Assembly: GCA_049968235.1 (NCBI GenBank)
Contig: JBMFRC010000028.1
Location: 1-39,105, forward strand
Length of the DNA: 39,105 bases
Reading direction: 5' to 3'
Source: Candidatus Hydrogenedens sp.
GTDB taxonomy: Bacteria > Hydrogenedentota > Hydrogenedentia > Hydrogenedentales > Hydrogenedentaceae
Positions 2,718-32,276 of this stretch are shown here, one piece after another. Every line of letters starts with the position of its first letter. The first letter of the stretch is position 1. Position numbers and translations under genes: made by a program. Below the pieces are notes generated by a model that had not been told where the DNA came from, made no database searches, and saw only the letters and a program-made list of their open reading frames with translations.

Positions 2718-2734
2718 AATATTTTAGAATCATA

Positions 2735-6851: not shown

Positions 6852-8579
6852 TTGAATGTGAGAATAGCTAAAAAACGATTACCCGAGATGCTTCTCGATT
6901 TAGGAGTTATTAACAAAGAAAAATTAAATGAATGTATAAAAATTCAACAGCAGACAGGTAAAAATCTTCAAGATATATTACTTGAAAAGAAGTATATATC
7001 AGAGGAAGAACTGGTGGAAACACTCAGCGAACAACTTCAAATTCCTCATATCCGTGTATCAAATTATGCAATCCCCAAAGAAGTACTTGCTGAAGTTCCC
7101 GAAGGACTTGCAAAACAATATCAAGTATTACCTATCTCTATAACAGGTGATATTTTAACACTTGCCATGGCAAATCCATTAAATATCCTTGCTTTAGATG
7201 ATATTCGAATGATAACAGGTAAGGAAATTGAGCCTGTGATTGCTATGCCCTCAGAACTTCGTGATGTGATAGAGAAAAACTATAGTGGTGATAGGGCATC
7301 GGAGATATATGCTTCTTTATTAGCAGAACATTCGCAACAAGATGAAGTTGAAGAATTTAAGACTTCATCCGAAGAAGTTGAGGATGTAAGTAAAATTGAA
7401 TCCGTAGAAGAAGATGAACCTGTAAAAAAAATGGCGCGTCTGATTGTTCTGGATGCTCTAGAAAGAGGAGCGTCAGACATACATATTGAGCCATTTGAAA
7501 AAATTATTCGCATTCGCTATCGTGTAGACGGTGCCCTCGAGGAAGCAAAATCACCTCCTAAGTCTATGCAATCAAATCTTATTGCTCGCTTTAAAATTTT
7601 ATCGGGTTGTAGAATTGATGAACATCGTCTCCCACAAGATGGTCGTTTCCGCATAAAATTTCGAGGTAGAGAGATAGATTTCCGTGTAGCATTTCTTCCT
7701 TGTAAATATGGCGAAAAGATAGTATTGCGTGTACTTGATAAGAGCAATTTGGTGTTGAATCTTGAAGATATGGGTTTTGAGCCTCAGCCTCTGGAAGCAT
7801 TATACCATGCGTTGAAATTACCCCATGGCATGATACTTTTAACGGGACCAACAGGAAGTGGTAAAACCACAACACTATACAGTTGCTTAACCCGCCTGAA
7901 TACAATAGAAACAAATATAGTAACTGTAGAAGACCCTATCGAGTATGAATTGTTTGGAATTAATCAGGTGCAGGTGCAATCCCGTATTGGATTTACATTT
8001 GCAGAAGCATTACGCCAAATTTTGCGTCAGGACCCTAATATTATAATGGTCGGGGAAATCCGTGATGGAGAGACAGCAGATATAGCAGTGAAAGCAGCAT
8101 TGACCGGGCACCTTGTGTTAAGCACATTACACACAAACGACGCCGCAGGTGTATTTCCTCGATTAATAGATATGGGTATAGAGCCATTCCTTGTCCAATC
8201 CTCTGTGGCTCTCGCAGCAGCACAACGATTATTAAAACGAGTTTGTAAAGAATGTAAAGAAAATATATCTGTAGATAGAAATGTGTTAGAACGTATTCAA
8301 TTTCATGGATTCCCCCACATTCCTAATCCTCAATTTGTCCGGGGCAGAGGTTGTCCAAAATGTAAGGACTCGGGATATAAAGGACGGATTGCCTGTCTGG
8401 AAGCCATGTTAAATTGGCCTGAATTGCATCCACTGGTTTTGAACCGTGCATCAGGTTATGAAATTAAGAAACAAGCAATTGCATGTGGAATGAAAACACT
8501 GCGACAAAATGCACTTGCCCTTGCTGCACGAAGTTTTACAACGATTGAACAGGTTCTTGAGCATACTATTGCTGATTAA
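6852..8579 (+). CDS. Type II secretion / type IV pilus assembly ATPase of the GspE/PilB/MshE family, with N-terminal MshEN-type domain
   Basis: TTG start with RBS aggag 6846-6850. N-term 'RLPEMLLDLGVINKEKLNECIKIQ' + 'LQDILLEKKYISEEELVETLSEQ' (MshEN-like tandem motifs) and 'IPHIRVSNYAIPKEVLAEVPEGLAKQYQVLPI'; Walker A 'LLTGPTGSGKTTTLYSCL'; Asp/His boxes 'IIMVGEIRDGETADIAVKAALTGHLVLSTLHTND'; tetracysteine Zn motif 'CKECKE...GRGCPKCKDSGYKGR'. Confidence 0.9.
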   Translation: MNVRIAKKRLPEMLLDLGVINKEKLNECIKIQQQTGKNLQDILLEKKYISEEELVETLSEQLQIPHIRVSNYAIPKEVLAEVPEGLAKQYQVLPISITGDILTLAMANPLNILALDDIRMITGKEIEPVIAMPSELRDVIEKNYSGDRASEIYASLLAEHSQQDEVEEFKTSSEEVEDVSKIESVEEDEPVKKMARLIVLDALERGASDIHIEPFEKIIRIRYRVDGALEEAKSPPKSMQSNLIARFKILSGCRIDEHRLPQDGRFRIKFRGREIDFRVAFLPCKYGEKIVLRVLDKSNLVLNLEDMGFEPQPLEALYHALKLPHGMILLTGPTGSGKTTTLYSCLTRLNTIETNIVTVEDPIEYELFGINQVQVQSRIGFTFAEALRQILRQDPNIIMVGEIRDGETADIAVKAALTGHLVLSTLHTNDAAGVFPRLIDMGIEPFLVQSSVALAAAQRLLKRVCKECKENISVDRNVLERIQFHGFPHIPNPQFVRGRGCPKCKDSGYKGRIACLEAMLNWPELHPLVLNRASGYEIKKQAIACGMKTLRQNALALAARSFTTIEQVLEHTIAD

Positions 8580-10841: not shown

Positions 10842-11939
10842 TTATGGATTATCTACCCATGATAGCCATTCAACTTTTCCCTGTGCGTCAATCATAAATT
10901 TCCTTGCCCTTAAATTCGATGAAGGACCTTCTTCATAATAGACGATAAGTATACTATCATCTTTTAATGTTACCATAGAAGGGTATGCCCCTATGCACGG
11001 GTCAACTAATATTGGTTCGTTCCATGAAACAGCATCATCTGTACTTATACTTATACAGGTTCCCTTGTGAGGTGAACGAATACCCATTAATAAAACTCCT
11101 GATGGTGCACGATATAAATAAGGAGAATGCCCCGGGAAAGGGAGTGCTTTACTGATGCTCCATGTTTTGCCCCCATCAGTAGATAATGAAAATCCCATAG
11201 GTAAGTCGCTATGTCCCCGTTGTGCAATAAATAGATTCTGATTCTTCAATATACATATATCCGGTTCCGCATCAAGTTTTAATGTCCCATAATCAATGTC
11301 AATAGGAGTAGACCATGTGATTCCTTTATCTTTCGAAAGAGATACTGCACCACAACCTCCTTTTCGTTCATCGGCATATAGACTAATGATTAATATACCA
11401 TCTGAAAGTGTTCGTATCGGAGAACTACAGTAATACTCAGAAAAAATTTGTTGAGGTTCCGACCATGTTTTTCCCCAATCTTCAGAAGAAATTATCCATG
11501 TTCCCAAGCCTTCCCATTGCTTGTCCTGATTTTTAATGGGTTTTAAAGAAAAGAAATTACAAATCAACTTTTTATTGTCAATCACTGCGATAGATGGGTC
11601 ACGGTCATCATAAGGACTATCATAAACAACAAAGGGCTTTCCCCATGTTTTCCCTTCATCTTCCGAAAATATTCCAGAAATTCGTCCTCCTTTAGGGTAT
11701 GTATCATTCGGCAATGATACATGGGCATAGCCATCATAAAAAACACAGAGTAATCTTCCATCAGGTAGTCTGCATATATCAGGGAAAGCCTCATAAGCAC
11801 CTCTACCACCATCTTTACATATAACAAGGTAGTCTTTTCCCTCTTGCAGGGGTAAGGATTGCCCCTCTGCATAAGCACAAACAGATAGAAGATACAACAG
11901 GAATATCCATTGCCAAAATATAAACTGTAGTCGTTTCAT
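10842..11939 (-). CDS. Secreted BNR/Asp-box repeat glycoside hydrolase (GH33 sialidase-like beta-propeller)
   Basis: Signal peptide; five Asp-box repeats 'SEDEGKTWGKP', 'SEDWGKTWSEP', 'SKDKGITWSTP', 'STDGGKTWSIS', 'STDDAVSWNEP' (S-x-D-x-G-x-T-W). Confidence 0.7.
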   Translation of the reverse strand: MKRLQFIFWQWIFLLYLLSVCAYAEGQSLPLQEGKDYLVICKDGGRGAYEAFPDICRLPDGRLLCVFYDGYAHVSLPNDTYPKGGRISGIFSEDEGKTWGKPFVVYDSPYDDRDPSIAVIDNKKLICNFFSLKPIKNQDKQWEGLGTWIISSEDWGKTWSEPQQIFSEYYCSSPIRTLSDGILIISLYADERKGGCGAVSLSKDKGITWSTPIDIDYGTLKLDAEPDICILKNQNLFIAQRGHSDLPMGFSLSTDGGKTWSISKALPFPGHSPYLYRAPSGVLLMGIRSPHKGTCISISTDDAVSWNEPILVDPCIGAYPSMVTLKDDSILIVYYEEGPSSNLRARKFMIDAQGKVEWLSWVDNP

Positions 11940-12034: not shown

Positions 12035-12571
12035 ATGAATAATTTACTTCAAGTAATTAAAGAACGAAGAACCATTCGTAAGTATCAAAACAAGCCTATA
12101 TCAGACGAACTGTTAAATACCATTCTGGAAGCAGGTAGATGGGCACAATCATGGGCGAATACACAGTGTTGGTATGTCATTGTAGTAAAAGATGAAAAAG
12201 TAAAAGAAGAACTCCAAAAAACAGTTCCCTCTGGCAATCCCTCATATCAAGCAATTGTAGATGCCCCTGTTTTATTATGCCTTTGTGCTAAGAAAAATAT
12301 ATCAGGTTTTTATAAGGGAAATGCATGTACTCCTTTTGGAGATTGGTTATTGTTTGATATGGGTGTCTTTGCTCAAAATATTGCTTTATCTGCTTATTCA
12401 TTAGGTTTGGGAACTGTAATTGTAGGGCTTTTAGACCAGAAATCCGCCCAGAAAATATTAAAACTTGGTGATGATAAAGAATTGGTTGCGTTAATGCCTC
12501 TTGGTTTCCCTGCTGATGTTCCCTCAGCACCCCCTCGTAAAGAAATAAAGGATTTTGTTCAATACATTTAA
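12035..12571 (+). CDS. Nitroreductase family protein (FMN-dependent)
   Basis: 'RRTIRKYQNKPISDELLNTILEAGRWAQSWANTQCWYVIVVKD' is the nitroreductase N-terminal signature; RBS aaggaggg 12020-12027. Confidence 0.85.
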   Translation: MNNLLQVIKERRTIRKYQNKPISDELLNTILEAGRWAQSWANTQCWYVIVVKDEKVKEELQKTVPSGNPSYQAIVDAPVLLCLCAKKNISGFYKGNACTPFGDWLLFDMGVFAQNIALSAYSLGLGTVIVGLLDQKSAQKILKLGDDKELVALMPLGFPADVPSAPPRKEIKDFVQYI

Positions 12572-15066
12572 TTTCCTATTTCTTCTTCGAGCAAGTTACA
12601 TTCAGAAATTCTTTTTTGCAAAGTGTTAATATAAAGGGTTTTTATCTCAAAACCCCGAAAAGAGACAGAAAAATTTAAATCAAGAGGAGGAATGTGTATC
12701 TCTGTCTCCTGTGTATTACCTGTGGGTTCAAATAATCGTAGAATATAACCATTCTTCTTTTCGGCTTTTTTGAAAGCAGAAAGCACAATCGAAGGGTTTT
12801 CTATAACAATTCCATTGATATAAGGGTTCCCTTTTTGCGTTGGGACAAAAGAAAGGAAGAAAGGTTTCTCATTATGTGCCAATGCTTCATTGTCTATTGT
12901 CCGAAATCTATCCTGTGCGTTTCCACCTGTTATCCAGAAACGGAATATACGTTCCCCTTGCTCCATTCGTGGAGTAAATCGGTCTTGAGGAACTAAGGGG
13001 CGGTTCTTGAAAGGTAAAGAAGAATAAGCAGGTGAGTGGAGTAATGAAAGACGAATGGTATTGTTTACAAAATCGGAACCGTAAATTCCATCATTGATAA
13101 TTGTTAGTGCCAGGTTTTTGTTCGGACTATAACCCGCAACCCATTTTTGTGAAACAACTTCATATTGTTCCCCGGGCAATTTATCTTTTCCAAAAACGAC
13201 CTGCCCTATATATTCAGTATCATTCCAGGGTAAAGGAACAGAGAGTTTTAACATACGATCTTTTTCAAACCAGAAAACACGAACCTGTATTTCTATTTCC
13301 GGAAGAAGTTTCGGTATTTTATAGTGAATAACAATGTATGAGTTATTGTATTTGAAGATAGCCTCAACAACAGTTCTTACCTCCCCATCTTCGATAATAT
13401 GAACGGGCGAATATTTATCTTTTTGAATACCACATATCTTGGGAACTTCTGTTTCATCTAATAAAGAGAAAACACCTTCGACCTCTTTGTAATTTAAAAC
13501 TTCACTTCCCCATGGATCTTCGTTATCTTTAATTACAATAGGGAGGAAAGCAGAAGTTTGAAGAAAATCATTGCCATTAATACGATAAAAATCTATGAGC
13601 CCTTTTTCAGCATTTATTCCTATATGGGTATTATTCCCTTTGATTTCTATAATTCCGTTTTTGATATTCAAATTGGATGGGGGTTTTTGGGGAAGTATTG
13701 TATCCGTTTTTATATCAATTTGCGTTATTTGTGAAGGGGGTAATGTGGTCGTAAAAACCATTTTCTTCCGCCAATCAACAGCCACATTTCCATGTTCTTT
13801 TTCTACCTGAGAAGGGATGAGATTTTTATTGATAAACATTTCCGGCAATACAAAAGAATCTTCAAAATTAAAATCAGGAAGGCAAAATTCTGCTTCAAAA
13901 ATTTGTTTTACAGGGAATGGATGTGGATTGTATGCAAATAGGGGAACAGTTCCCACAGAGGACATTTCATTTAGCCTGCATAAGGAAAAGAAACAACGTG
14001 CTTTAATCCGGGAAACAATATTTAATCCATGGTCCAAAATTTGTAATGCTGTATCTTCCACGGGGGGGATAGAAGAACCGGGTAATATATCGTGAAATTC
14101 AGCAAATAACAAATTTTCCAGTGCTTGATGTAATTCATTTGATGGATACTCCAATAATCCAAGAATAGCACATACACTTGCCATTTTCTCTGCCATGTAT
14201 AAATCGTTTTCTAATTTCCTGTGTTTTTGTTTTATCCGAATCTGTGAAGTGTAACAGCCCGGAGCCCATGGATTTAAGTCTCGTTCCAACTTTGGAAATG
14301 TTTTTTGTTCTTCCTGTAGTTCTTTGAAAAAAGAATCCGTTGTGGAATGAAAAATTTCGGGTTCATCGGTGGAATGAATGAGTTCCATTAAATCTTTACA
14401 ATCCTTAAAAGAAGGACCGCCACCATGGTTCCCTACACCCCACAAAACAAGCCCTATAAAATGGTCTGAGTGTTCTTTTATCCATTGTTCCACTTTTTCA
14501 CGGGCTTTACCCAAAGGGGCATTATACCAGCCCATAAAACGATATGCTATCACTTCTGAGCCATCATATCCTTTCCAGATAAATCCTTTTTCAGGTAACG
14601 AAAATATTTCTGCATGGGGTCTGCCAAAAAGATAGTACTTATAACCAGATTTTGCAAGGATTTGAACCAATCCCCGAGAATGTCCAAAAGGGTCAAAATT
14701 TATGGCTGTTTCGGGTTCCACTCCAAATTTCTCTTTGAAATAATTTTTCCCAATAAGAATCTGACGAACAAAAGATTCACCGGAGGGCATATTACAATCC
14801 GGTTGAAGAAACCACCCTCCCATGATATTCCACTTGCCCTTTTGCACTTGCATTTGAATTCTATTAAATAATTCAGGAGAATACATTTCTACCCATTTAT
14901 AAAGAATGGCTTCGTTATGGTTAAAGATAAACTCATCAAATTGCTCACATAATTCTACAGCGGTTTTAAAGGTAGAAAGGGTTTCACCAGCACCTTCTTC
15001 CCATTCCCACAGCCAGCATGGGTCTAAGTGTGCATTACACAAAAGATGTATTCGTCGTTTGTGCAT
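12568..15066 (-). CDS. Glycoside hydrolase family 38 alpha-mannosidase
   Basis: N-terminal 'IHLLCNAHLDPCWLWEWEEGAGETL...FIFNHNEAILYKWVEMYSPELFNRIQMQVQKGKWNIMGGWFLQPDCNMPSGESFVRQILIGKNYFKEKFG' is the GH38 N-terminal catalytic-domain signature; 832 aa. Converges on and overlaps the nitroreductase gene by 4 nt. Confidence 0.85.
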   Translation of the reverse strand: MHKRRIHLLCNAHLDPCWLWEWEEGAGETLSTFKTAVELCEQFDEFIFNHNEAILYKWVEMYSPELFNRIQMQVQKGKWNIMGGWFLQPDCNMPSGESFVRQILIGKNYFKEKFGVEPETAINFDPFGHSRGLVQILAKSGYKYYLFGRPHAEIFSLPEKGFIWKGYDGSEVIAYRFMGWYNAPLGKAREKVEQWIKEHSDHFIGLVLWGVGNHGGGPSFKDCKDLMELIHSTDEPEIFHSTTDSFFKELQEEQKTFPKLERDLNPWAPGCYTSQIRIKQKHRKLENDLYMAEKMASVCAILGLLEYPSNELHQALENLLFAEFHDILPGSSIPPVEDTALQILDHGLNIVSRIKARCFFSLCRLNEMSSVGTVPLFAYNPHPFPVKQIFEAEFCLPDFNFEDSFVLPEMFINKNLIPSQVEKEHGNVAVDWRKKMVFTTTLPPSQITQIDIKTDTILPQKPPSNLNIKNGIIEIKGNNTHIGINAEKGLIDFYRINGNDFLQTSAFLPIVIKDNEDPWGSEVLNYKEVEGVFSLLDETEVPKICGIQKDKYSPVHIIEDGEVRTVVEAIFKYNNSYIVIHYKIPKLLPEIEIQVRVFWFEKDRMLKLSVPLPWNDTEYIGQVVFGKDKLPGEQYEVVSQKWVAGYSPNKNLALTIINDGIYGSDFVNNTIRLSLLHSPAYSSLPFKNRPLVPQDRFTPRMEQGERIFRFWITGGNAQDRFRTIDNEALAHNEKPFFLSFVPTQKGNPYINGIVIENPSIVLSAFKKAEKKNGYILRLFEPTGNTQETEIHIPPLDLNFSVSFRGFEIKTLYINTLQKRISECNLLEEEIGN

Positions 15067-15098: not shown

Positions 15099-15836
15099 TT
15101 AAGAGTCTGTAGAAATATCTTTTAAGTTAGATTCAAATTGTTTTCGAACTGCTTCAAGATGTCGAATTATGAGTAATTCTGCCAAATCCCCATCGCGTTG
15201 TTCAAAGGCTTCTAATATGCGCTCAGCAAGTCGGTCTAACTCCTGTTTCCCAATCAGAATGATATCCACCATCTCATTAATTTTAAGAAAGGCTTGCCAC
15301 ATTGTATTGTACAAAAGTTCATAAATCTGGTTTCTTGTTGCTTGAGAAAATAGGCGGAAAAAACGTTCATTTACTTTTTGTAATTCCTCCGGATTGTATA
15401 TGGTAGTTTTCCTCTTCTGGAATAGATAACGAAGTTCATCCAATTCTTCCTGAGTATGTCGTTCCGCAGCAAGACGGACAACCTGTCGGACCATATTGTC
15501 TCTGAATTCAAGAATGTCCTTAAGCAAAGGTAAATTTACTGTCCCATTTTCATCACGAATTAATGTGTCAAATAATTCAAGTCCTCCAATCAGATCAATG
15601 TCTTGGACAACAATACCAGACCCCTGTCGAATTTTGACCAACCCTAAAGCCTCTAATCTTTTTAATGCTTCTCGGACACTATGTCGTGTGGCTTTGAACT
15701 TTTCTGCTAATTCCCGTTCTGTGGGTAATTTTTCTCCCGATTTATATTCTTTATTAATAATTTTCCTGCATAGTTCATCTGCAATTTTTTTAGACCGTGT
15801 TGAAGCAAAGTTTTTTTCGTTTTTTTTCTTTTCCAT
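15099..15836 (-). CDS. GntR-family transcriptional regulator (FadR/FCD-type C-terminal domain) with Lys-rich N-terminal extension
   Basis: wHTH '[42 protein letters not shown]'; alpha-helical C-terminal effector domain. Confidence 0.85.
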
Positions 15837-15864
15837 AATTGTTCAACCAATTTTGAAATTTAAT

Positions 15865-15893
15865 TTGACAAAAGACCTTTTATTTGATATATT
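15865..15893 (+). promoter_or_regulatory. Sigma70-type promoter for the DUF1559 gene: TTGACA-N17-TATATT
   Basis: ttgaca 15865-15870, 17-nt spacer, tatatt 15888-15893; about 55 nt upstream of ATG 15949. Confidence 0.5.
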
Positions 15894-15898
15894 ATACA

Positions 15899-15915
15899 AA
15901 TTGGTTCATCCAATT
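15899..15915. promoter_or_regulatory. 17-bp perfect palindrome AATTGG-ttcat-CCAATT, candidate operator for the divergent GntR regulator
   Basis: aattggttcatccaatt is its own reverse complement in the 6-bp arms. A third copy of the half-site (aaCCAATTtt, 15845-15854) lies 45 bp upstream on the other side of the -35. It sits between the -10 and the RBS of the DUF1559 gene. Confidence 0.4.
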
Positions 15916-15948
15916 ATAAAAATTAATATAATCAAAGGAGAACAAAAA

Positions 15949-16893
15949 ATGAAACGAACTGGTTTTACACTCATCGAATTATTAGTTGTGATTGCCATTA
16001 TTGGTATCCTTGCTGCGATTTTACTTCCGGCATTGGCTCGCGCTCGTGAGGCGGCTCGCCGTTCTTCTTGTGCTAATAATTTAAAACAATGGGGACTCGT
16101 TTTTAAAATGTATGCCAACGAATCTCCCGGAGGAAAATTTCCACCCAGCGAATTAGAATTAGGCTGTGGTGCCCGTCCTTGTATGGCATTCGGTCCGTTA
16201 ATTAGTGTCATATATCCGGAATATCTTACAGACCCGGCGATAATCTTTTGTCCTTCCGATGCAAAAGATAGATTAGAAAACTTTATTGACCCTCAAACAA
16301 AAGAATTTACCATGTTACAAAAGATAGATGGAAATCGTCAGCAGGGTGTAGAAGGAATTGATGCAAGTTATACTTATGCCAATTTCGTATTTGACCGCTG
16401 TGGAGATGAATATGGCACAAAATCTACAGCAGCATTGCAAGCATTGGCTACTATAATTGGGAATCCTCTTGACCCATCAATTACGGAAGGCGCAGCTCAG
16501 TTTATTGAAGTAGTAGAAGATATGATTGATAAATTGAGACCTTATTTCCTTTCAAATGATGCAAATGGATTCAGGCGGGAGGCTGATAATGATAGACAGG
16601 TTTCGGATGGATTAGGTAATGGCGGAGGGAAAATTGTTTATCGCTTGAGAGAAGGTATAGAACGATTTTTGATTACAGATATTAATAATCCTGCTGCAAG
16701 TGCGAAGGCACAAAGTTCTATTTTTGTCATGTGGGATAATGTATCTGACCAGGTAGCAAAATTTAACCATATTCCCGGTGGTAGCAATATTCTGTATATG
16801 GATGGGCATGTATCCTTTGTTCGCTTTCCAGGTGAACCGCCCATGGTTGCTGAACTTGCTGCAATCATGCGAGTTTTCGATATTGCAGAATAG
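15949..16893 (+). CDS. Prepilin-type N-terminal cleavage/methylation-domain protein with DUF1559 (H-X9-DG) C-terminal domain (pseudopilin-like, Planctomycetota-type)
   Basis: ATG 15949 with RBS aaaggag 15934-15940. '[47 protein letters not shown]' is the class III signal/N-methylation motif + helix; C-terminal '[12 protein letters not shown]' is the DUF1559 signature. The listed ORF 15496-16893 is an artefactual upstream extension. Confidence 0.85.
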
Positions 16894-16923
16894 ATAATAC
16901 AATACCGCTTATATTATTTAAAT

Positions 16924-16962
16924 CAGCATACAGGATTTTCCTGTATGTTGATTTTTTTTTTT
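16924..16962. terminator. Bidirectional rho-independent terminator between the convergent DUF1559 and FAH genes
   Basis: 11-bp stem cagcatacagg (16924-16934) / cctgtatgttg (16940-16950, one G:U), loop atttt, followed by an 11-T run 16952-16962; A-rich on the opposite strand. Confidence 0.8.
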
Positions 16963-16963
16963 A

Positions 16964-17764
16964 CTAAATAACAGTGTTTATCAAAGTTCCAATTGATGAA
17001 ATCTTTATTTCTACAATATCCCCTTTGGACAAAGTTATTTTGGGAGAGCGTGCCCAACCTACTCCGGGAGGAGTTCCCGTAAAAATAAGAGTTCCTGCCT
17101 TTAATGTGGTATCCTGGCTTAAAAAAGATACTAACTCATAAGGAGAAAAAATCATATCAGAAGTATTGCCCGTTTGCATAATGTGATAATTTACTTTTGT
17201 AGTAATCTGCAATGATTCATTATCTTTAATATCTTTTATTGGAAGAACAAAAGGTCCCACAGGAGCAAATGTGTCAAAACTTTTCCCTCGCACCCATTGT
17301 CCTCCTCCCAATTCCATTTGCCATTTTCTCGCTGAGACATCATTTCCGATAGTAAAACCCAGAATATAGTTATTCGCTTCTTCTACTTTTATATTTTTTA
17401 TATCGGATTTAATAATAATTACTAACTCCCCTTCATAATCTACCTCATTACTACAAACCGCAGGAATTTGTATAGGCTCAAGGTGTGCTGTAATTGCAGA
17501 TGGATTTTTCATGAAAATAACAGGGTATTCAGGGATAGGTTTGTTGGTTTCCTTTGCGTGTCCCTTGTAGTTCAATCCAATACATAAGATAGCAGGAGCA
17601 TTAATAGGAGGAAGCCATTTCTGCGGTAGAATTTTTTTGTTCGTCATCTGTAACGAATTATCAAAGGGATTCCCTTTAAGTTCATATAAATTGTTATCTT
17701 CTGCAATTGTTATGTAAGAAATATCCCCTTGTTCGTTAATTACTTTACCCCATTTCATAAGCAT
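16964..17764 (-). CDS. Fumarylacetoacetate hydrolase (FAH) family protein (2-keto-4-pentenoate hydratase / oxaloacetate decarboxylase-like)
   Basis: 'LCIGLNYKGHAKETNKPIPEYPVIFMK', 'YEGELVIIIKSD', 'GTLIFTGTPPGVG' are FAH-fold signatures; 266 aa. Confidence 0.8.
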   Translation of the reverse strand: MLMKWGKVINEQGDISYITIAEDNNLYELKGNPFDNSLQMTNKKILPQKWLPPINAPAILCIGLNYKGHAKETNKPIPEYPVIFMKNPSAITAHLEPIQIPAVCSNEVDYEGELVIIIKSDIKNIKVEEANNYILGFTIGNDVSARKWQMELGGGQWVRGKSFDTFAPVGPFVLPIKDIKDNESLQITTKVNYHIMQTGNTSDMIFSPYELVSFLSQDTTLKAGTLIFTGTPPGVGWARSPKITLSKGDIVEIKISSIGTLINTVI

Positions 17765-17898: not shown

Positions 17899-18762
17899 AT
17901 GTCTATAACGAGACGAAAATTTTTGAAAGTAACGGGGATAGGAATTCCAACTTTAGGATTTTCACACTTCTTATTCGGTGATGAAAAGAAAACAGAATAC
18001 CCTGTCGCAGCATGTGATTGGTCCCTATGGACAGAAGGTCCTTCGGCTCTTGACCTTGCCAAACAAATCGGTTTGAATGGTATTGAAATTTCTGCAGGGA
18101 AACCAGATGATAAAATCGCTATTGCTAATTCTGAATTAAAAGAACAGTATAAATTAAAAATGCAAGAAACAGGAATAGTTATTCCGTCTATTGCCATGGC
18201 ACTTTTGAATGATGCTCCACTAGCCAGTGAACCCCGAACGATAAATTGGATTCTGGATACTATTGATTCTGCAAAGGAACTAAATGCAAAAGTAATATTG
18301 CTTGCTTTTTTTTGTAATGGAGATTTAAAAGATAAAAATGGATTGAAAAATAATGATGTAGTAGAGGTCGTAAATCGCTTAAAAGAATGTGCACCCAAAG
18401 CGAAGGAAAAAGGAATTATATTGGGTATTGAAAATACTTTATCTGCTCAACAAAATATGGAAATTTTAGAAAAAATAGGAAGTGATGCATGCAAAATATA
18501 CTATGATGTTGGCAATTCTACTTATAATGGCTATGATGTACCTGCTGAGATACGAATGCTTAAAGATAAAATTTGTCAAATACATTTTAAGGATGGTGCC
18601 TTCTATTTAGGTAAAGGTAAAGTAAAAATGGAGCCTATTGCGGAGGCTATCAAGGAGATTAATTATAAAGGCTGGCTTGTTTTAGAGACAGGCTTACCTA
18701 CGATGAACAAAATAAATGACTTTAAGAAAAATTTAGAGTTTCTACATCAATTATTCAGTTAA
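17899..18762 (+). CDS. Tat-exported sugar phosphate isomerase/epimerase (xylose-isomerase-like TIM barrel) family protein
   Basis: Twin-arginine signal 'MSITRRKFLKVTGIGIP'; TIM-barrel pattern with 'ILGIEN' and 'GWLVLETG' metal-site motifs typical of AP-endonuclease-2/xylose-isomerase-like fold. RBS aaggag 17888-17893. Confidence 0.7.
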   Translation: MSITRRKFLKVTGIGIPTLGFSHFLFGDEKKTEYPVAACDWSLWTEGPSALDLAKQIGLNGIEISAGKPDDKIAIANSELKEQYKLKMQETGIVIPSIAMALLNDAPLASEPRTINWILDTIDSAKELNAKVILLAFFCNGDLKDKNGLKNNDVVEVVNRLKECAPKAKEKGIILGIENTLSAQQNMEILEKIGSDACKIYYDVGNSTYNGYDVPAEIRMLKDKICQIHFKDGAFYLGKGKVKMEPIAEAIKEINYKGWLVLETGLPTMNKINDFKKNLEFLHQLFS

Positions 18763-18787: not shown

Positions 18788-20005
18788 ATGGCAATAGAAA
18801 ACATAAATAACAGTTCAAGACGGGAATTTATCAAAACAGCAGTTTTAGGAACAAGTGCATTAACAATTTTATCTCCGAAGATTGTTTTTGGAAGTGAATC
18901 TAATGAAAAAATTAAATTGGGTCTAATTGGTTGTGGTGGTAGAGGACGATGGATAGCACATCTATTTGAAAAAAATGCCCCTTTTAAGATAACAGCCGTA
19001 CATGATGTATTTCGTAAACGGGCTATGCGTGTGGCGGAAGAATGTAATGTCCCCGAGGCACATGTTTTTGTTGGATTAGAAGGTTATAAACAACTGTTAG
19101 AAACAGATATAGAAGCCGTTGCTATTGAGAGTCCACCCTATTTTCATCCTCAACAGGTCCTGTCCGCTGTAGAGAAAGGGAAACATGTGTATTTAGCAAA
19201 ACCTATCGCAGTAGATGTTCAGGGTTGTTTATCCTTGATAGATATTTCAAAAAAATATCAGGAAAAATTATGTCTACTTGTAGATTTTCAGACACGGAAT
19301 TACCAATTATTTAAAGAATGTGTAAAACGGATTCATGATGGTATGATTGGTTTGCCTGTTATTGGACAATGTTATTATTATTGTAGTAGGTTGGGAAAAC
19401 AAGCAGAGCCAGGGACTCCCGGTTCTAATTTAAAAAATTGGGTTTTTGATAAAGTGCTTTCAGGAGATATTATTGTTGAACAGAATATCCATGTAATTGA
19501 TATGGCAAACTGGTATTTAAAATCACATCCATTAAAAGCCTTCGGCTCAGGTGGTAGAAAAGCCCGAACCGATGTAGGTGATTGCTGGGACCATTTCTGT
19601 GTCCAATTCACATATCCGGATAATGTTATTGTTGATTTCAGTAGTGGTCAATTTACGTACGGTTATGATGATTTATGTATGCGACTTTATGGCTCTCTCG
19701 GAACAGCAGATACTCATTATGGAGGTATTGTTACTATTGAAGGAAAATCGGATAGCTGGGAAGGCGGAAAAAGTTCCGATATTTACGAAACAGGCGCGGT
19801 AAATAATATTAAAGATTTTTATGAATCTATAAAGAATGGTAAGTATTTAAATAATATAGAAGAATCTGCATATAGCAATTTAACAAGTATTTTGGGGAGG
19901 ATGTCTGCTTATCAAAATAGAACAGTTACATGGGAAGAAATGATACACTCAGGAGAAAAATTGGAAAAAGAAATAGAGATTTCAGAAGAAATCATTAATT
20001 CATAA
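18788..20005 (+). CDS. Tat-exported Gfo/Idh/MocA family NAD(P)-dependent oxidoreductase
   Basis: Tat signal 'SSRREFIKTAVLGTSALTIL'; Rossmann 'KLGLIGCGGRGRWIAHLF'; 'AVAIESPPYFHPQQVLSAVEKGKHVYLAKP' is the Gfo/Idh/MocA signature. Confidence 0.85.
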   Translation: MAIENINNSSRREFIKTAVLGTSALTILSPKIVFGSESNEKIKLGLIGCGGRGRWIAHLFEKNAPFKITAVHDVFRKRAMRVAEECNVPEAHVFVGLEGYKQLLETDIEAVAIESPPYFHPQQVLSAVEKGKHVYLAKPIAVDVQGCLSLIDISKKYQEKLCLLVDFQTRNYQLFKECVKRIHDGMIGLPVIGQCYYYCSRLGKQAEPGTPGSNLKNWVFDKVLSGDIIVEQNIHVIDMANWYLKSHPLKAFGSGGRKARTDVGDCWDHFCVQFTYPDNVIVDFSSGQFTYGYDDLCMRLYGSLGTADTHYGGIVTIEGKSDSWEGGKSSDIYETGAVNNIKDFYESIKNGKYLNNIEESAYSNLTSILGRMSAYQNRTVTWEEMIHSGEKLEKEIEISEEIINS

Positions 20006-20183: not shown

Positions 20184-20657
20184 TTGATAATTTATCAATC
20201 AGAATATCATGTTACTCTGGATGATAAGAACAGAATATTAGTTCCTTCATCCCTAAAATCTATTATGTCCGATAATAACCATACAGTCTGGTATCTGACT
20301 CGCGGGTTTGAAAATAATCTTTTATTATTCCCCTCGCAGATTTGGAAAGAAATAACTGATAAATTAGAGCAATTGCCCACATTAAATCCGAAAGTACAAA
20401 TTCTTCGGCGCCGTTTTATCGGTGGTTCTGTTCAGGTTAGACCCGACGGGCAATATCGCATAACATTGCCAGCACCATTTCGGAACTGGGCAGAGATTAT
20501 GGATAATGCTGTGATAGCAGGCTGTGGTATGTATCTTGAAATATGGAATGAAAAGTTATGGGACAATTTCTTTAAAAACACTGATATTCAAACAGATATG
20601 AAAATTTTTATGGAGGAATTATTTCCACTAACGAATATAAATCAAAACCTATCATAA
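20184..20657 (+). CDS. mraZ: Transcriptional regulator MraZ
   Basis: TTG start, RBS ggag 20173-20176. Two tandem MraZ/SpoVT-AbrB repeats, 'YHVTLDDKNRILVPSSLK' and 'YRITLPAPFRNWAEI' (DxxxR motif in each half); first gene of the dcw cluster. Confidence 0.85.
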   Translation: MIIYQSEYHVTLDDKNRILVPSSLKSIMSDNNHTVWYLTRGFENNLLLFPSQIWKEITDKLEQLPTLNPKVQILRRRFIGGSVQVRPDGQYRITLPAPFRNWAEIMDNAVIAGCGMYLEIWNEKLWDNFFKNTDIQTDMKIFMEELFPLTNINQNLS

Positions 20658-20666
20658 TAGGAGCAA

Positions 20667-21017
20667 GTGGCTATGGACATGGAAAAACTTAATTATGGGC
20701 ATGTAATCCTCTTCAGAATTTCTGGCAGTCTTGATGAGGAAAATGTATGTAATTTGCGACTTGCCATCGCTGATTACATCAAAGGCAGAAAAAGTTGTGT
20801 GGTCTTGAATCTACAAGATGTAGAGATGATGGACCAGGTTTCCGCGGGATATTTGTTAGAATGTCTGCAAATGGCGAGGAGAAAAGGGGGAGACCTAAAA
20901 TTGGTCAAACCGAGCACCTTCATCGAACAACTATTCCGTTTTTTGGGTATATGGCATTATTTTGAAATATATACAACCGAAACAAGTGCCGTTAACGCAT
21001 TCAAACTAGCCGCATAA
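20667..21017 (+). CDS. STAS-domain anti-sigma-factor antagonist (SpoIIAA/RsbV-like)
   Basis: 116 aa; 'HVILFRISGSLDEENVCNLRLAIADYI...CVVLNLQDVEMMDQVSAGYLLECLQMARRKGGDLKLV' matches the STAS fold and the phosphorylatable-Ser region. RBS aggag 20650-20655. Inserted between mraZ and rsmH. Confidence 0.7.
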   Translation: MAMDMEKLNYGHVILFRISGSLDEENVCNLRLAIADYIKGRKSCVVLNLQDVEMMDQVSAGYLLECLQMARRKGGDLKLVKPSTFIEQLFRFLGIWHYFEIYTTETSAVNAFKLAA

Positions 21018-21024
21018 AAGAAAT

Positions 21025-21066
21025 AACTTTTCCAGTAAACAAATTTGCTGGAAAAGTTTTAATTTA
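21025..21066 (+). terminator. Intra-operon hairpin (possible attenuator / partial terminator) between the STAS gene and rsmH
   Basis: 11-bp stem aacttttccag (21025-21035) / ctggaaaagtt (21048-21058), 12-nt loop with internal palindrome caaatttg, followed by ttaatttatt. AT-rich stem, so probably weak. Confidence 0.45.
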
Positions 21067-21081
21067 TTATGTCAATAATTT

Positions 21082-22050
21082 ATGACCAATGAAAAACATC
21101 ATATTCCTGTAATGGCAAATGAGGTAATAAACCTCTTTCAAGAGAGAGAGAAGGGTATTTTTGTTGATGCAACAATAGGTGCTGGTGGACATACTTCTTA
21201 TATTCTCGAATATCTCTCCCCCCGTATGGTTGTGGGGATAGATAGGGACCCCAAAGCCATACAGATATGTTCAAAAAAATTTGAGAAAGAAAAACGAGTA
21301 AAAATATATCACGCAAATTACGCCGATATGGATAAAGTAATAAACATATTAGGTATCCAGGAGGTAGATGGAATTTTAATTGATGCAGGACTTTCCAGTT
21401 TTGCTTTAGATGATGAAGAACGTGGATTTTCTTTTCAGAAAGACGGGCCTCTGGATATGCGTATGAATACAGATGAGAAAGAAACTTTAGGAGATTTCTT
21501 AGACCGGACGGATGAACATACGCTCGCAAAAATTCTAAAAGAATACGGGGATGTTGTAAAGCCTTATTCTATTGCAAAAAAAATTATTATGCGTAGAAGG
21601 GAAGGAAAAATTAGAAAAGTTTCGGATATAGTACAAACGGTATTAGAAGATTTTCATTATGTTAATCATATTCCAGATGAAGTTCGTCAGGTATTTCAAG
21701 CATTAAGAATTGCCGTTAATAATGAATTATTTTTTTTAAGAAAAGGTCTATGGGCAGGATTGAAAATATTGGCAATACATGGACGATTTATCGTAATTAG
21801 TTTTCATTCAGGTGAAGACAGAATTGTCAAATCTATGTTTCGTTTCGTATCGCAACCATTACGGATTTTATCTCCAGAAGGTATTTTAAGAGAACAAATA
21901 TCTCCCATAGCGAGGAATTTAACACCGAAACCCGTCGCTCCTTCATCTGAGGAGATAAAAATAAATTCCAGAGCAAAAAGTGCAAGACTAAGAGCCATTG
22001 AAAAAATTTCAGATACATATATTCAACATTATATTTCAAAAGGGGTATAA
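21082..22050 (+). CDS. rsmH: 16S rRNA (cytosine1402-N4)-methyltransferase RsmH (MraW)
   Basis: 'HIPVMANEVINLF...GIFVDATIGAGGHTSYILE...GIDRDPKAI...DGILIDAGLSSFALDD' are RsmH SAM-MTase motifs. Confidence 0.9.
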   Translation: MTNEKHHIPVMANEVINLFQEREKGIFVDATIGAGGHTSYILEYLSPRMVVGIDRDPKAIQICSKKFEKEKRVKIYHANYADMDKVINILGIQEVDGILIDAGLSSFALDDEERGFSFQKDGPLDMRMNTDEKETLGDFLDRTDEHTLAKILKEYGDVVKPYSIAKKIIMRRREGKIRKVSDIVQTVLEDFHYVNHIPDEVRQVFQALRIAVNNELFFLRKGLWAGLKILAIHGRFIVISFHSGEDRIVKSMFRFVSQPLRILSPEGILREQISPIARNLTPKPVAPSSEEIKINSRAKSARLRAIEKISDTYIQHYISKGV

Positions 22051-22054
22051 AAGA

Positions 22055-22954
22055 ATGAGTAAAAAAGTTATACAAATACGAAAAGATGCCCTGTTCATAA
22101 GTTCCTTATATCTAATCCCGGTGTTTATTGTATCTGGAGTACTGGCTGTGGATTTATATATTAATGTCCAACGCTGGCATTATGATTATTTAACTATACA
22201 GGCAAAAAAGAATATTACACGATGGGTTAAAGATAAAAGTGAATTTAAAAAGCATGATAAATTAAAGGGAATAAGTAAGGATAGTAAAGGTGAACCTTCA
22301 ATAGAGCCTATAGATAATAAAGAAACAAAAGATATAAGGTCCATTTCTTTTTTTTCAAAGATACTCGACAAAATAGTTTTCTTTAGAGAAACCGAAGAGG
22401 AAAATCAAACTCAAGAAGAAGGACAAAATGTGCAAAAAGTAGAAGACATTAACTATGGACTCCAGGCGATGATGGCTGAAATAGAGATGTTGAAAGTTGA
22501 AAAGGTAAGATTAGAAAACTTGCAAAATTTGACAAGATTGGGATTTCAATTAGGTTTGGTGACTCCAAAACCAGAACAGGTAGTACGAATTACATATAGT
22601 AAAGATGAACGGGATAAATTAATACAAACTGCATCATCAGATATGTTATTTCCCCAAAAGCCTAAAAAGATAAATACCTCAGAAACGAAATATGCAGAAG
22701 GTGAAACAGATATTAAACAAAAAATAAAGAGAATAAAGGACTTGTTGAACAAACCTGCAATTTCTATTAAGGAATGGGTTATCAATAAAATTACAACTCC
22801 CGTAATTGCAGAATCAAAAAATAGTGTTAACGAGGAAACAAATGAAAGCAATGTGCCCAAAATGAATAAAGATGAAAAGAATTTACATCCTGATAAAAAT
22901 AATGATGATATAGATATCGATTCATTAACAGAGTTCTTGATGGAGAAACTATAG
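22055..22954 (+). CDS. FtsL-like bitopic cell-division protein with unusually long Lys/Glu-rich coiled-coil C-terminal extension
   Basis: Position between rsmH and ftsI; ATG 22055 (MSKKVIQIRKD) with RBS aaagggg about 22040. Single TM 'ALFISSLYLIPVFIVSGVLAVDLYI' followed by coiled-coil 'LQAMMAEIEMLKVEKVRLENLQNL'. 299 aa versus ~100-120 for typical FtsL. The listed ORF start 21998 overlaps the rsmH 3' end. Confidence 0.55.
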   Translation: MSKKVIQIRKDALFISSLYLIPVFIVSGVLAVDLYINVQRWHYDYLTIQAKKNITRWVKDKSEFKKHDKLKGISKDSKGEPSIEPIDNKETKDIRSISFFSKILDKIVFFRETEEENQTQEEGQNVQKVEDINYGLQAMMAEIEMLKVEKVRLENLQNLTRLGFQLGLVTPKPEQVVRITYSKDERDKLIQTASSDMLFPQKPKKINTSETKYAEGETDIKQKIKRIKDLLNKPAISIKEWVINKITTPVIAESKNSVNEETNESNVPKMNKDEKNLHPDKNNDDIDIDSLTEFLMEKL

Positions 22955-22965
22955 GGGATAATACA

Positions 22966-25359
22966 GTGAGCGGTATCTTACAAAAATCGCCTTTTGATAT
23001 AGAAGAAAAAATACCTCAGACAATCGACATAAAACGATTGGCTCTTTTGCAATTATTTTTGTTCCTTTTACTATGTGTAATTGTTATTCGTCTTGTTATC
23101 GTGTCTTTTTTCCCAAAGGGAATTGTTAAAGAATATGCTGATAAACATGATGGAATAATAAAACGCGAAAATCCCCGGGGAATGATTTATGATAGGTCAC
23201 AAAATCCTTTAGCCTATTCTGTTCTAATGCCTTCACTGTTTTGTTCTCCTGCGGATGTTTTATATCCGGATGAAATGGCGGAAAAAGTAGCCTCAAAATT
23301 AGGGTTGGATGTTGACTTTGTAAAAAAGAGGATGACACTTACAAATGATGAAGGAAAGAAATTACAGTATGTATTACTTCGAAGAGGAATTGATAATATT
23401 CCAAAAGCAGAATTAGAGAATTTTGTTTCAGAAATAAATAAATGGCAGAAAGAAGAATTAAAAAAATCCACAACACCCCAACGAAATATAAAACAGTCTT
23501 ACAAAGAGATATTGTTATCCTATTTTAACCGAAATCTGGATAAATCGAAGGATAATAGTAAACCCAAAGGAAATCCATTATTTATAAATTATGAATGGTT
23601 TCGCCAATATCCGCATCATGAAGTTGGAGGAAACATTATTGGCTTTGTAGCCATGAATGATGAAAATCGAGTAGGAGGTATGGATGGAATAGAAAAAGAT
23701 TGGGACAAATATCTTTATGCAGACCCTACGGAAATTTCCGGACGAAAGAACAGTTCGGGAAATATTCTTCCCTCCACTTCTCAAGAAAAAAGAGGACAGT
23801 ATCCGGGAGCCAATGTTCATCTTACAATTGATTTAGAGATACAACATGTTCTGGAAAAGGAATTAGACCGAAGGATTGAAGAATGTAATGCCGTAGATGG
23901 GATGGGTGTTATAATGGACCCATTTACAGGAGCCATTCTTGCTATGGCCTCTCGTCCCTCCTATGACCCCAATGACCCCGAAACAAGACAAGGTGATGCT
24001 CTCAAGAATAAAGTACTATATGAACTTATAGAGCCGGGTTCTACTTTTAAGATTGTTACTGCTAGTGCAGGAATTGAGAAAGGATATATTGATGAAAATA
24101 CGATTATTGATTGTGAAGGTGGCAGGATTCGAGTTGCCAGCAAAATTATCAAAGATGTCCATGGTATGGGGGCTGTCCCTTTCTGGAAATGTTTTGAACA
24201 ATCCAGCAATGTAGCTATGGTAAAAGTGGGAAGAACTGTGGGATTAGAAACTTTACGCGAATATGTAAAGAAGTTTGGATTTGGAACAAAAACACTCAAA
24301 GATATTTCTACAGAAAGAATAGGTGCTATTTCTACAAATAAGGCAGAAACAACTTTGAGTTCTATGTCCATTGGTTATGCTGTTATGGTTACACCCATTC
24401 AATTAGCGAGGGCTTATGCTGTAATTGCCAATGGTGGGTATCTGGTGGAACCCTATATTGTGGAAAAAGTAACTCTTCCTGAAGGTGATGTCTTATATGA
24501 ACATAAAGAGGAAGAACAGCCACAGGTAATAAAATCAGAAACTGCAGAAATTATGAGAACCTTATGTCATCAAGTTGTATTGAAAGGAACAGGGAAATCA
24601 GCAAATATTCCGGGGTATAAAGTAGGAGGAAAAACGGGAACTGCTCATTTAGCAAAAACTCAAAAACAAGGCGGTGGATATGACCCAGATAAAATTATCT
24701 CCATTTTTGCAGGGTTTGCCCCTGTTTCACATCCAAAAGTGGTTGCCGTAATTGTGATTCGCTATCCCATGTCAAAAATTCGGTATGGTGGATATGTTTG
24801 TGGACCCGTATTCAGAAATGTCGTTTATTATACACTAACCCGGCTAAAAGTTCCTCCAGACCCTACGATTTCCAATGATTTACTACAACAAGAAGGATTT
24901 ATTGCGGAAGAGAGTATAGAAAAGGACAATGACTCATTATATTTTGAGGATATTGACCCTCTATGGGTTCATGAATTGGTAAATGAAGAGTCGTCAGAGC
25001 TAAATAAAACGGTGATTACGGAAAACAAATCAGGCAAAATGAATAATAAGGAGAAGGAAAATAAGAAAGAAGAGGAAAAGTTAAAGAAACCTGTGTTTAA
25101 TCCTATGTCTGAGAAAGAAATTATTAAAATTGCAAAACAAACGGAAACTTTACCTGACCTTTCAGGATTAACAAAAATGAAAGCATTGAGTATCTTAAAT
25201 TCATTAAAAATAGATTACGAATGCCGTGGCTACGGAAGAGTCGTATCCCAGTTCCCTGTTGCAGGAACACCCTTAAAGGAAGTAGATATATGTTTATTAG
25301 ATTTTTCTGAAGATTTCAATTCGGGATTAGAGATGGTTTTGCCAAGAAAAGAGGATTAA
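22966..25359 (+). CDS. ftsI: Class B penicillin-binding protein / peptidoglycan D,D-transpeptidase FtsI with C-terminal PASTA domain and Lys/Glu-rich tail
   Basis: GTG start. N-terminal TM; SxxK 'GSTFKIV', SxN 'QSSNVAM', KTGT 'GGKTGTAH'; C-terminal 'LPDLSGLTKMKALSILNSLKIDYECRGYGRVVSQFPVAGTPLKEVDICLLDF' is a PASTA domain; 'NNKEKENKKEEEKLKK' low-complexity region. Confidence 0.9.
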   Translation: MSGILQKSPFDIEEKIPQTIDIKRLALLQLFLFLLLCVIVIRLVIVSFFPKGIVKEYADKHDGIIKRENPRGMIYDRSQNPLAYSVLMPSLFCSPADVLYPDEMAEKVASKLGLDVDFVKKRMTLTNDEGKKLQYVLLRRGIDNIPKAELENFVSEINKWQKEELKKSTTPQRNIKQSYKEILLSYFNRNLDKSKDNSKPKGNPLFINYEWFRQYPHHEVGGNIIGFVAMNDENRVGGMDGIEKDWDKYLYADPTEISGRKNSSGNILPSTSQEKRGQYPGANVHLTIDLEIQHVLEKELDRRIEECNAVDGMGVIMDPFTGAILAMASRPSYDPNDPETRQGDALKNKVLYELIEPGSTFKIVTASAGIEKGYIDENTIIDCEGGRIRVASKIIKDVHGMGAVPFWKCFEQSSNVAMVKVGRTVGLETLREYVKKFGFGTKTLKDISTERIGAISTNKAETTLSSMSIGYAVMVTPIQLARAYAVIANGGYLVEPYIVEKVTLPEGDVLYEHKEEEQPQVIKSETAEIMRTLCHQVVLKGTGKSANIPGYKVGGKTGTAHLAKTQKQGGGYDPDKIISIFAGFAPVSHPKVVAVIVIRYPMSKIRYGGYVCGPVFRNVVYYTLTRLKVPPDPTISNDLLQQEGFIAEESIEKDNDSLYFEDIDPLWVHELVNEESSELNKTVITENKSGKMNNKEKENKKEEEKLKKPVFNPMSEKEIIKIAKQTETLPDLSGLTKMKALSILNSLKIDYECRGYGRVVSQFPVAGTPLKEVDICLLDFSEDFNSGLEMVLPRKED

Positions 25360-25362
25360 AGA

Positions 25363-28200: not shown

Positions 28201-28255
28201 ATATGATTTTTATATAATTTTACATTTTTATAAAGAAGAACAAATAGAGGTATAG

Positions 28256-31119: not shown

Positions 31120-31122
31120 AGA

Positions 31123-32259: not shown

Positions 32260-32276
32260 GATATTAAATATATATT

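Follow-up and report, generated by a model that had tools for sequence, protein, structure and literature searches.

A conserved pair of a FadR-type regulator gene and a pilin-like DUF1559 gene in Hydrogenedentota, with a PdhR-type box at the predicted DUF1559 promoter

Transcription regulators of the FadR subfamily of GntR proteins bind short palindromes that follow the rule TKGT-N3-ACMA (PMC4494728). The operator of Escherichia coli PdhR has been defined experimentally as AATTGGTnnnACCAATT, and at pdhR its site is placed upstream of both aroP and pdhR, which are divergently transcribed (PMC7660256). Repressors of the FadR/FCD type may use two operators. LldR controls lldPRD of E. coli through two in-phase operators (PMC8689689), and the tetrameric Atu1419 protein of Agrobacterium fabrum binds a perfect and a degenerate palindrome and forms loops (PMC7797058). 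Proteins with a DUF1559 domain are among the largest paralogous families of Planctomycetota and related phyla, with no function assigned to them (PMC10632474). The locus described here brings these two subjects together. It occupies positions 15099-16893 of a 39,105-nucleotide (nt) stretch of DNA from Candidatus Hydrogenedens sp. (phylum Hydrogenedentota), the whole of which is referred to as the window, and it consists of a gene for a FadR-type regulator and a divergently transcribed gene for a pilin-like DUF1559 protein. It is likely that the regulator represses the promoter of the DUF1559 gene through an adjacent operator, O1, until a ligand relieves the repression, with a second operator, O2, stabilizing the binding and with probable autoregulation of the regulator gene. 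Repression of this kind, by a FadR-subfamily protein at a PdhR-type box, is mechanistically ordinary. The novelty lies in the conserved association of such a regulator with one pilin-like DUF1559 gene in Hydrogenedentota.

The regulator gene (15099-15836, minus strand) encodes a protein of 245 amino acids and the DUF1559 gene (15949-16893, plus strand) a protein of 314 amino acids. They are separated by an intergenic region of 112 base pairs (bp) at 15837-15948; the ATG of the DUF1559 gene is at 15949. Facing this gene is a predicted sigma-70-type promoter (15865-15893, plus strand) with matches at 11 of 12 positions, composed of TTGACA at 15865-15870, a 17-nt spacer and TATATT at 15888-15893, and with a TG flagged ahead of the -10 hexamer. 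O1 (AATTGGTTCATCCAATT, 15899-15915) lies just downstream of the -10 and is a PdhR-type box in 13 of 14 positions. It contains an exact AATTGG-N5-CCAATT, the sole perfect copy in the window. A preliminary description of the DNA had pointed to a 112-bp intergenic region, a divergent FadR-type GntR regulator, a prepilin-type DUF1559 gene, a TTGACA-N17-TATATT promoter facing that gene and the perfect palindrome behind its -10, all of which were recovered as described. O1 is better read as the 17-bp box AATTGGTtcaTCCAATT, a 7-N3-7 site AATTGGT-tca-TCCAATT whose right arm, TCCAATT, leaves it one mismatch from perfect symmetry. Relative to the predicted promoter, it would cover the predicted start of the DUF1559 transcript and extend over positions +1 to +15 or so. 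At E. coli pdhR, the PdhR box is located just downstream of the promoter. A candidate promoter for the regulator gene (15891-15920, minus strand; TTTATA, 18-nt spacer, TATAAT; matches at 10 of 12 positions) overlaps the DUF1559 promoter such that the two -10 hexamers coincide in part and O1 is inside the spacer of the regulator promoter.

The significance of O1 was sought in orthologues because the palindrome in the window alone is at chance level, as detailed below. The paired loci comprise the window and nine further Hydrogenedentota loci in which the regulator gene is divergent from a gene for a protein of 310-321 amino acids with N_methyl, DUF1559 and H-X9-DG matches. The regulators of these loci are 90% (L002), 79% (L003), 68% (L162), 67% (L004), 57% (L163), 55% (L164), 52% (L005), 47% (L167) and 46% (L007) identical to that of the window, and the GC content of the paired loci ranges from 36 to 63%. 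The divergent pair is kept in all nine, and the genes past it vary by lineage; since the flanking genes differ, the conserved unit is the two-gene module. Wherever a source names homologues of the two proteins, the name given is Candidatus Hydrogenedens or Hydrogenedentes. A metagenome scan with the regulator alignment yielded at least three further relatives (L083-L085). Close regulator homologues were also encountered on contigs labelled 'uncultured Nitrospirales', 'Nitrospiraceae' or 'Thermodesulfobacteriota' (L003, L004, L006, L007 and L010/L011), two of which (L003 and L004) are additionally syntenic with the Hydrogenedens window; the differently labelled contigs look like mislabelled bins.

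When the intergenic regions of eight representative lineages were aligned on the palindrome, ATTGGT..ACCAATT was invariant in all eight, and beyond this box and the -35 region no intergenic conservation was seen in the alignment. The comparison points to AATTGGT-N3-ACCAATT as the true site of the orthologues. Its core, TTGGT-N3-ACCAA, is perfect or has a single mismatch in the ten paired loci and in an additional locus, L165, and is perfect in seven of the nine further loci. In each of the nine orthologous upstream regions O1 has a shuffle P of at most 0.007, and the seven perfect boxes were matched by only 0-1 of 2000 shuffles. The orthologue consensus TTGGT-N3-ACCAA conforms to the FadR-subfamily rule, from which the right arm of O1 in the window, TCCAA, is one off. 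Agreement with the PdhR box extends to 14 of 14 positions in L002 and L003. The promoter is conserved along with the operator: the -35 hexamer is kept in all nine loci, in most of them as an exact TTGACA, and O1 is at or a few bases past the -10 of the DUF1559-facing promoter in every one. Even the high-GC loci L163 and L164 have a promoter with 11 of 12 matches, in which TTGACA is followed at 17 nt by TATTAT or TATCAT. Absence of the palindrome from orthologous intergenic regions had been set beforehand as a refuting test; the palindrome is present in 9 of 9.

O2 (AATTGTTCAACCAAT, 15837-15851) is a degenerate site with two mismatches to ATTGGTNNNACCAAT that appears to serve as an auxiliary operator. 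It adjoins the start codon of the regulator gene and precedes the -35 hexamer of the DUF1559 promoter, with its centre 63 bp from that of O1, so that the two operators bracket the -35 and -10 hexamers. The preliminary description had recorded a third half-site in this position. A half-site, CCAATT at 15847-15852, is indeed there; it is not isolated, forming instead the right arm of the degenerate full box. An O2-like site with no more than two core mismatches was found 63-64 bp from O1 in the window and in L002, L003, L004, L163 and L164, and the paralogue loci L012, L083 and L084, whose target genes are different, show this two-site spacing as well. A distance of 63-64 bp corresponds to about six helical turns. 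The distance of O2 from the regulator start codon varies between -14 and -44, whereas that between O1 and O2 is fixed, from which it follows that the constraint lies between the two boxes. In this respect the locus resembles those of LldR and Atu1419, which are FadR/FCD-type repressors with two operators: here O1 and O2 bracket the promoter at a conserved phase. It differs from both in its much shorter spacing of 63-64 bp, the two regions of Atu1419 being 109 and 190 bp, and from Atu1419 also as regards the box (ATGTATACAT) and the zinc site of that protein. The location of O1 at or just past the -10 in all loci and the 63-64 bp spacing in six lineages lend support to the initial proposal that the geometry fits repression and possibly looping.

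From the observed anatomy of the locus, its conservation and the match of O1 to an experimentally defined box type, we infer that this regulator binds, in which direction it acts, that its binding is cooperative and that a ligand exists. A dimer of the regulator would bind O1, a palindrome of 15-17 bp (ATTGGT-N3-ACCAAT). Because O1 is at or just past the -10 and covers the transcript start, its occupation would block either the binding of RNA polymerase or open-complex formation at the DUF1559 promoter. A site past the -10 implies repression, as a promoter so near to consensus needs no activator. The weaker O2, about six helical turns upstream and beyond the -35, most likely stabilizes the binding by dimer-dimer contact, either cooperatively or in a tight loop; it would also be within the leader of the regulator's own transcript. 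Since the spacer of the candidate regulator promoter contains O1, occupation of this operator would probably autoregulate the regulator gene and, in the clade of the window, the co-transcribed alpha-mannosidase gene described below. A small molecule at the FadR_C/FCD domain would then release the repressor, whereupon the DUF1559 gene would be expressed.

Several points weigh against this mechanism. Within the AT-rich window considered by itself, the palindrome does not exceed chance: some perfect 6-N(0-10)-6 inverted repeat turns up in 66% of the shuffled versions of the 112-bp intergenic region, a share that drops to 5% when each arm is required to have at least two G/C. Core-box matches with at most one mismatch number four in the window versus 2.2 expected, and the three other than O1 (at 6700, 20901 and 22556) are within coding regions, at chance expectation. 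O2 is degenerate or absent in L005, L007, L162 and L167 and is thus auxiliary and cannot be essential. A regulator-facing promoter equivalent to the candidate of the window was called in L004 (TTGAAC-18-TATAAT) and none was called in the high-GC loci L163 and L164. It is recognizable only in low-GC loci, which makes autoregulation less secure. A loop of about 63 bp would be very tight, and side-by-side cooperativity or two independent sites fit equally well. Finally, the genome could encode another regulator of the same box specificity; the paralogues in L012 and L014 use this box type.

The alternative that survives best retains repression by O1 and dispenses with the contact between dimers. 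O1 would repress the DUF1559 gene, and O2 would be a roadblock or an operator for the regulator transcript. In agreement with such a division of labour, the leader predicted for the regulator mRNA contains O2, approximately +34 to +48 from the candidate promoter, four orthologues lack it or have a degenerate version of it, and a 63-bp loop would be energetically costly. However, two independent sites would not be expected to hold a fixed distance from each other while that to the start codon ranges widely, and the recurrence of the same spacing in paralogue loci with other targets again suggests a constraint between the sites. Independent action is possible and deserves consideration, although we regard it as rather unlikely.

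The distribution of the box connects it to the adjacent regulator. All ten divergent pairs have it. In L165, the regulator gene is 2.5 kb away from the DUF1559 gene, yet a one-mismatch box is found upstream of the latter. By contrast, the DUF1559 paralogues of L169-L171, which are 59-62% identical to the window protein, have neither an adjoining regulator gene nor the box, and the same is true of the second DUF1559-like gene in L163. As the box is missing from the regulator-less paralogues and is kept in L165, it tracks the regulator rather than the DUF1559 family. Further evidence was obtained from 142 loci of other phyla that had been picked by the recognition-helix motifs TRHxxREAL and LPTEREL. 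Over the 370 bp that precede the regulator gene in these loci, the core box has a density of 0.92 per kb, as compared with 0.025 per kb elsewhere. With this 37-fold enrichment, the recognition helix predicts the box. These data bear on a second alternative, in which O1 is real and is occupied by another regulator with this specificity from elsewhere in the genome, for instance a true PdhR- or LldR-like protein, and the adjacent GntR protein has other targets. The box type is indeed common to many FadR-subfamily regulators, and that of O1 is close to the LldR box (PMC10272880); within Hydrogenedentota, the paralogues in L010, L011, L012 and L014 use it at other genes. Nevertheless, the co-occurrence of box and adjacent regulator in all ten pairs, the lack of the box at close DUF1559 paralogues without a regulator, and the presence of the box at the own genes of regulators that have the same recognition helix across phyla render binding by a distant regulator improbable.

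The regulator paralogues themselves are found in varied surroundings. Those in L012 and L014 (39-41% identical to the window regulator) carry the same box type, at 5871 and 5935 in L012, 64 bp apart, and at 5899 in L014. Both are divergent from a two-gene RND-efflux-like operon (about 460 and 1117 amino acids), called by size and N-terminal sequence alone. L083 contains, at 2562-3721, a paralogue of 48% identity with two boxes 64 bp apart, and two small prepilin-type genes (176 and 210 amino acids) follow the regulator gene on the same strand. Six loci with distant FadR-type regulators (L060, L071, L075, L109, L146 and L147) each have a pair of AATTGGTCTTACCAATT-type boxes, perfect or nearly so, upstream of the regulator gene at a spacing of exactly 146 bp, which is another in-phase two-operator layout; the named ones among them are from Rheinheimera.

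The palindrome might alternatively act in the RNA if it folded into a hairpin at the start of the DUF1559 mRNA and thereby influenced mRNA stability or translation. With a start near 15900 it would make up the first 17 nt of the transcript, and a 6-bp stem could form. This stem does not appear in the leader's minimum-free-energy structure, which is itself unremarkable (z = -1.7), and no Rfam family is matched. Moreover, across orthologues the three central bases differ but the arms do not, and compensatory changes are lacking, as expected of a DNA site that binds a protein. In addition, the half-site recurs in O2, ahead of the promoter and not within the DUF1559 transcript. A role as an RNA hairpin is therefore highly improbable. 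That palindrome and half-site are functionless chance features of an AT-rich intergenic region, as the shuffles and the box counts of the window by themselves would allow, is hardly credible in view of the same box at the same position in nine loci that extend to 46% regulator identity and 63% GC, each with the P value given above, and with protein identities of 46-90% that exclude the loci being recent copies of one another.

By its domains, the regulator belongs to the FadR subfamily of GntR proteins. It matches the GntR winged helix-turn-helix (PF00392) with 78.3 bits against a cut-off of 27 and, in the effector domain, both FCD (PF07729; 57.2 versus 24.3 bits) and FadR_C (PF07840; 29.7 versus 23.6 bits). 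A profile search of structures retrieved FadR, PdhR and NanR. The best natural solved structure was that of E. coli FadR, followed by PdhR, and only a chimera with the FadR effector region scored higher. Residues 23-186 of the regulator align by profile with FadR residues 21-179, which include the linker and the first helices of the effector domain; the last part is unaligned. None of the NCBIfam equivalogs NanR, FadR, PdhR, LldR, UxuR, ExuR and GlcC was reached: the scores were 96 bits for NanR (cut-off 260), 70.9 and 69 bits for the FadR models NF003444 and TIGR02812 (cut-offs 189 and 249) and 63.4 bits for PdhR (NF007001; cut-off 330).

The operator consensus of PdhR is identical to the box of the orthologues, the winged helix of the regulator is 43% identical to that of E. 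coli PdhR, and binding of the same box is predicted here. The BLASTP similarity is limited to residues 10-79, whereas the effector domain is unalignable. There are no pyruvate dehydrogenase genes (aceEF-lpd) beside the regulator in the window or in the related loci with gene calls; the target is pilin-like instead, and a second in-phase operator is conserved. With E. coli FadR the regulator shares the profile match, a FadR_C score above the threshold and the operator core TGGT-N3-ACCA, but the equivalog scores are below their cut-offs and the flanks of the box differ. Judged from these comparisons, the regulator is an orthologue of neither PdhR nor FadR. Among 16 aligned orthologues no histidine of the effector domain is invariant, so the canonical histidine-based metal site of FCD domains is not conserved. 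Neither the alignment with FadR, which stops short of the end of the effector domain, nor the equivalog models, nor the flanking genes, which differ between lineages, point to a ligand. Hydrogenedentota have been described as degraders of lipids and glycerol (PMC10866078), and for this reason an acyl-CoA-type ligand is conceivable, although this is no more than a guess.

The target of the regulator has the N-terminus of a prepilin, MKRTG|FTLIE, with a short leader (MKRTG|F) and glutamate at +5. The prepilin motif was recognized by PF07963 (32.7 versus 21.2 bits) and TIGR02532 (32.5 versus 16.3 bits). The match to DUF1559 (PF07596; 38.5 versus 23.3 bits) covers only positions 2-39 of the 268 of the profile. 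At the other end of the protein, the H-X9-DG motif (TIGR04294) was found at residues 276-292 with 24.2 versus 19 bits, and H274, D285, G286 and H287 are invariant in 44 homologues. The two terminal parts are well conserved and the helical centre (residues ~151-210) is poorly conserved, as one would expect of a pilin-like subunit whose exposed region varies. An AlphaFold2 model built from the 44 homologues (pLDDT 76.9) predicts the fold of type IV pilins and pseudopilins, a long N-terminal helix packed on a beta-sheet. A Foldseek search with the model yielded no meaningful match in the PDB. Annotation as a solute-binding protein, which the Pfam name SBP_bac_10 and an earlier study (PMC2754498) suggest, was rejected, as the fold search did not find the two-lobe fold of periplasmic binding proteins. 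With the DUF1559/H-X9-DG proteins of Planctomycetota the window protein has in common the prepilin motif, a conserved segment after the first helix and the C-terminal H-X9-DG; it differs from them in its host and in its conserved pairing with a regulator. DUF1559 proteins had initially been called extremely numerous in Planctomycetota-like genomes and essentially uncharacterized. This holds for Planctomycetota, with 68 copies in Planctopirus limnophila, two of them essential, and 74 in Rhodopirellula baltica (PMC10632474, PMC2754498); the host of the present locus is a member of Hydrogenedentota and not of Planctomycetota. The literature searched contained nothing on the regulation of DUF1559 or H-X9-DG proteins, nor on pilins of Hydrogenedentota.

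The DUF1559 gene has a Shine-Dalgarno sequence, AAGGAG at 15935-15940 (plus strand), read directly from the sequence 8 nt before its ATG. It is followed by a predicted intrinsic terminator at 16920-16954 (plus strand), a 16-bp stem and a T-run between the DUF1559 gene and a convergent FAA-hydrolase gene. With these signals on either side, it appears to be a monocistronic gene with strong expression signals. On the other side of the pair, the regulator gene is followed by a gene for a GH38 alpha-mannosidase (12568-15066, minus strand) in which the N, middle and C domains of the family were all identified by Pfam. The GH38 gene starts 32 bp past the regulator gene and has its own Shine-Dalgarno sequence, and no terminator was called in the gap. 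The same gene order was found in L002, L004 and L162 and not in L003, L005, L007, L163, L164 and L167. GH38 is probably co-transcribed with the regulator gene, and hence under the same operator, in the low-GC clade only. The regulator had been proposed to be dedicated to one DUF1559 gene; the pair is conserved, but the dedication is probably not strict, since in this clade the regulator likely also controls its own operon with GH38.

Further genes of the window were noted in passing. A gene for a T2SSE/PilB-type ATPase with an MshEN N-domain is located at 6852-8579 (plus strand), 7 kb from the pilin-like gene. About 150 bp upstream of it, at 6699-6713, is a weak PdhR-like box, ATTGGTCGGACAAAG, with two mismatches. 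It was rejected as a real operator and treated as a chance occurrence, being inside the preceding open reading frame (ORF) and upstream of the likely promoter. That preceding ORF (4027-6771, plus strand; 914 amino acids) combines, in an unusual architecture, an MshEN domain (residues 100-186) with a DnaA-type ATPase domain (residues 678-835). A glycan-related neighbourhood (10842-11939 and 16964-17764 on the minus strand, 17899-18762 and 18788-20005 on the plus strand) is syntenic across the low-GC clade. It includes two proteins with twin-arginine signals (RRKFLK and RREFIK), one a xylose-isomerase-like TIM barrel and the other a Gfo/Idh/MocA oxidoreductase with weak glycoside 3-dehydrogenase-like matches, as well as an FAA-hydrolase-family protein and a BNR_2 sialidase-like protein. 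Downstream, at 20184-33302 (plus strand), is a probable cell-division and cell-wall gene cluster with MraZ first. Synteny with L162 places a STAS-domain ORF beside this cluster, and the ORFs that follow have the lengths usual for genes of division and wall synthesis.

The DUF1559 paralogues of other contigs have different neighbours. In L169 (3529-4957), L170 (3319-4960 and 5023-6267) and L171 (3350-4957), a small LTXXQ-like protein is encoded immediately upstream of each. The paralogues of L169 and L170 are within about 3 kb of an extracytoplasmic function (ECF) sigma factor gene, which is followed by two small ORFs, and in L170 an alginate lyase gene comes directly after the DUF1559 paralogue. 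DUF1559 genes are often beside genes for glycan-degrading enzymes, namely GH38, alginate lyase, GH109 and GHL15. A speculative and on present evidence doubtful interpretation is that DUF1559 paralogues form a repertoire from which the subunits of a type II secretion or type IV filament-like machine are exchanged. Every paralogue would combine a conserved core with an exposed, variable centre and would answer to a signal-specific sensor of its own. The sensor would be the FadR-like repressor in the case described here and may be the ECF sigma factor together with the LTXXQ-like protein in the sister paralogues. If true, this would amount to a logic analogous to that of polysaccharide utilization loci, built on pilin-like proteins, and would give the DUF1559 family of Planctomycetota, Hydrogenedentota and their relatives a role in substrate capture or uptake.

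The module provides a handle on the DUF1559 family, one member of which is probably controlled by a regulator of an already understood operator type. Although the organism is uncultured, the protein, the 112-bp region and candidate ligands are amenable to study in vitro. Reporter constructs in E. coli need a host without pdhR and lldR because the box equals that of PdhR and is close to that of LldR. The releasing ligand, once found, would show the condition under which the pilin-like protein is made.

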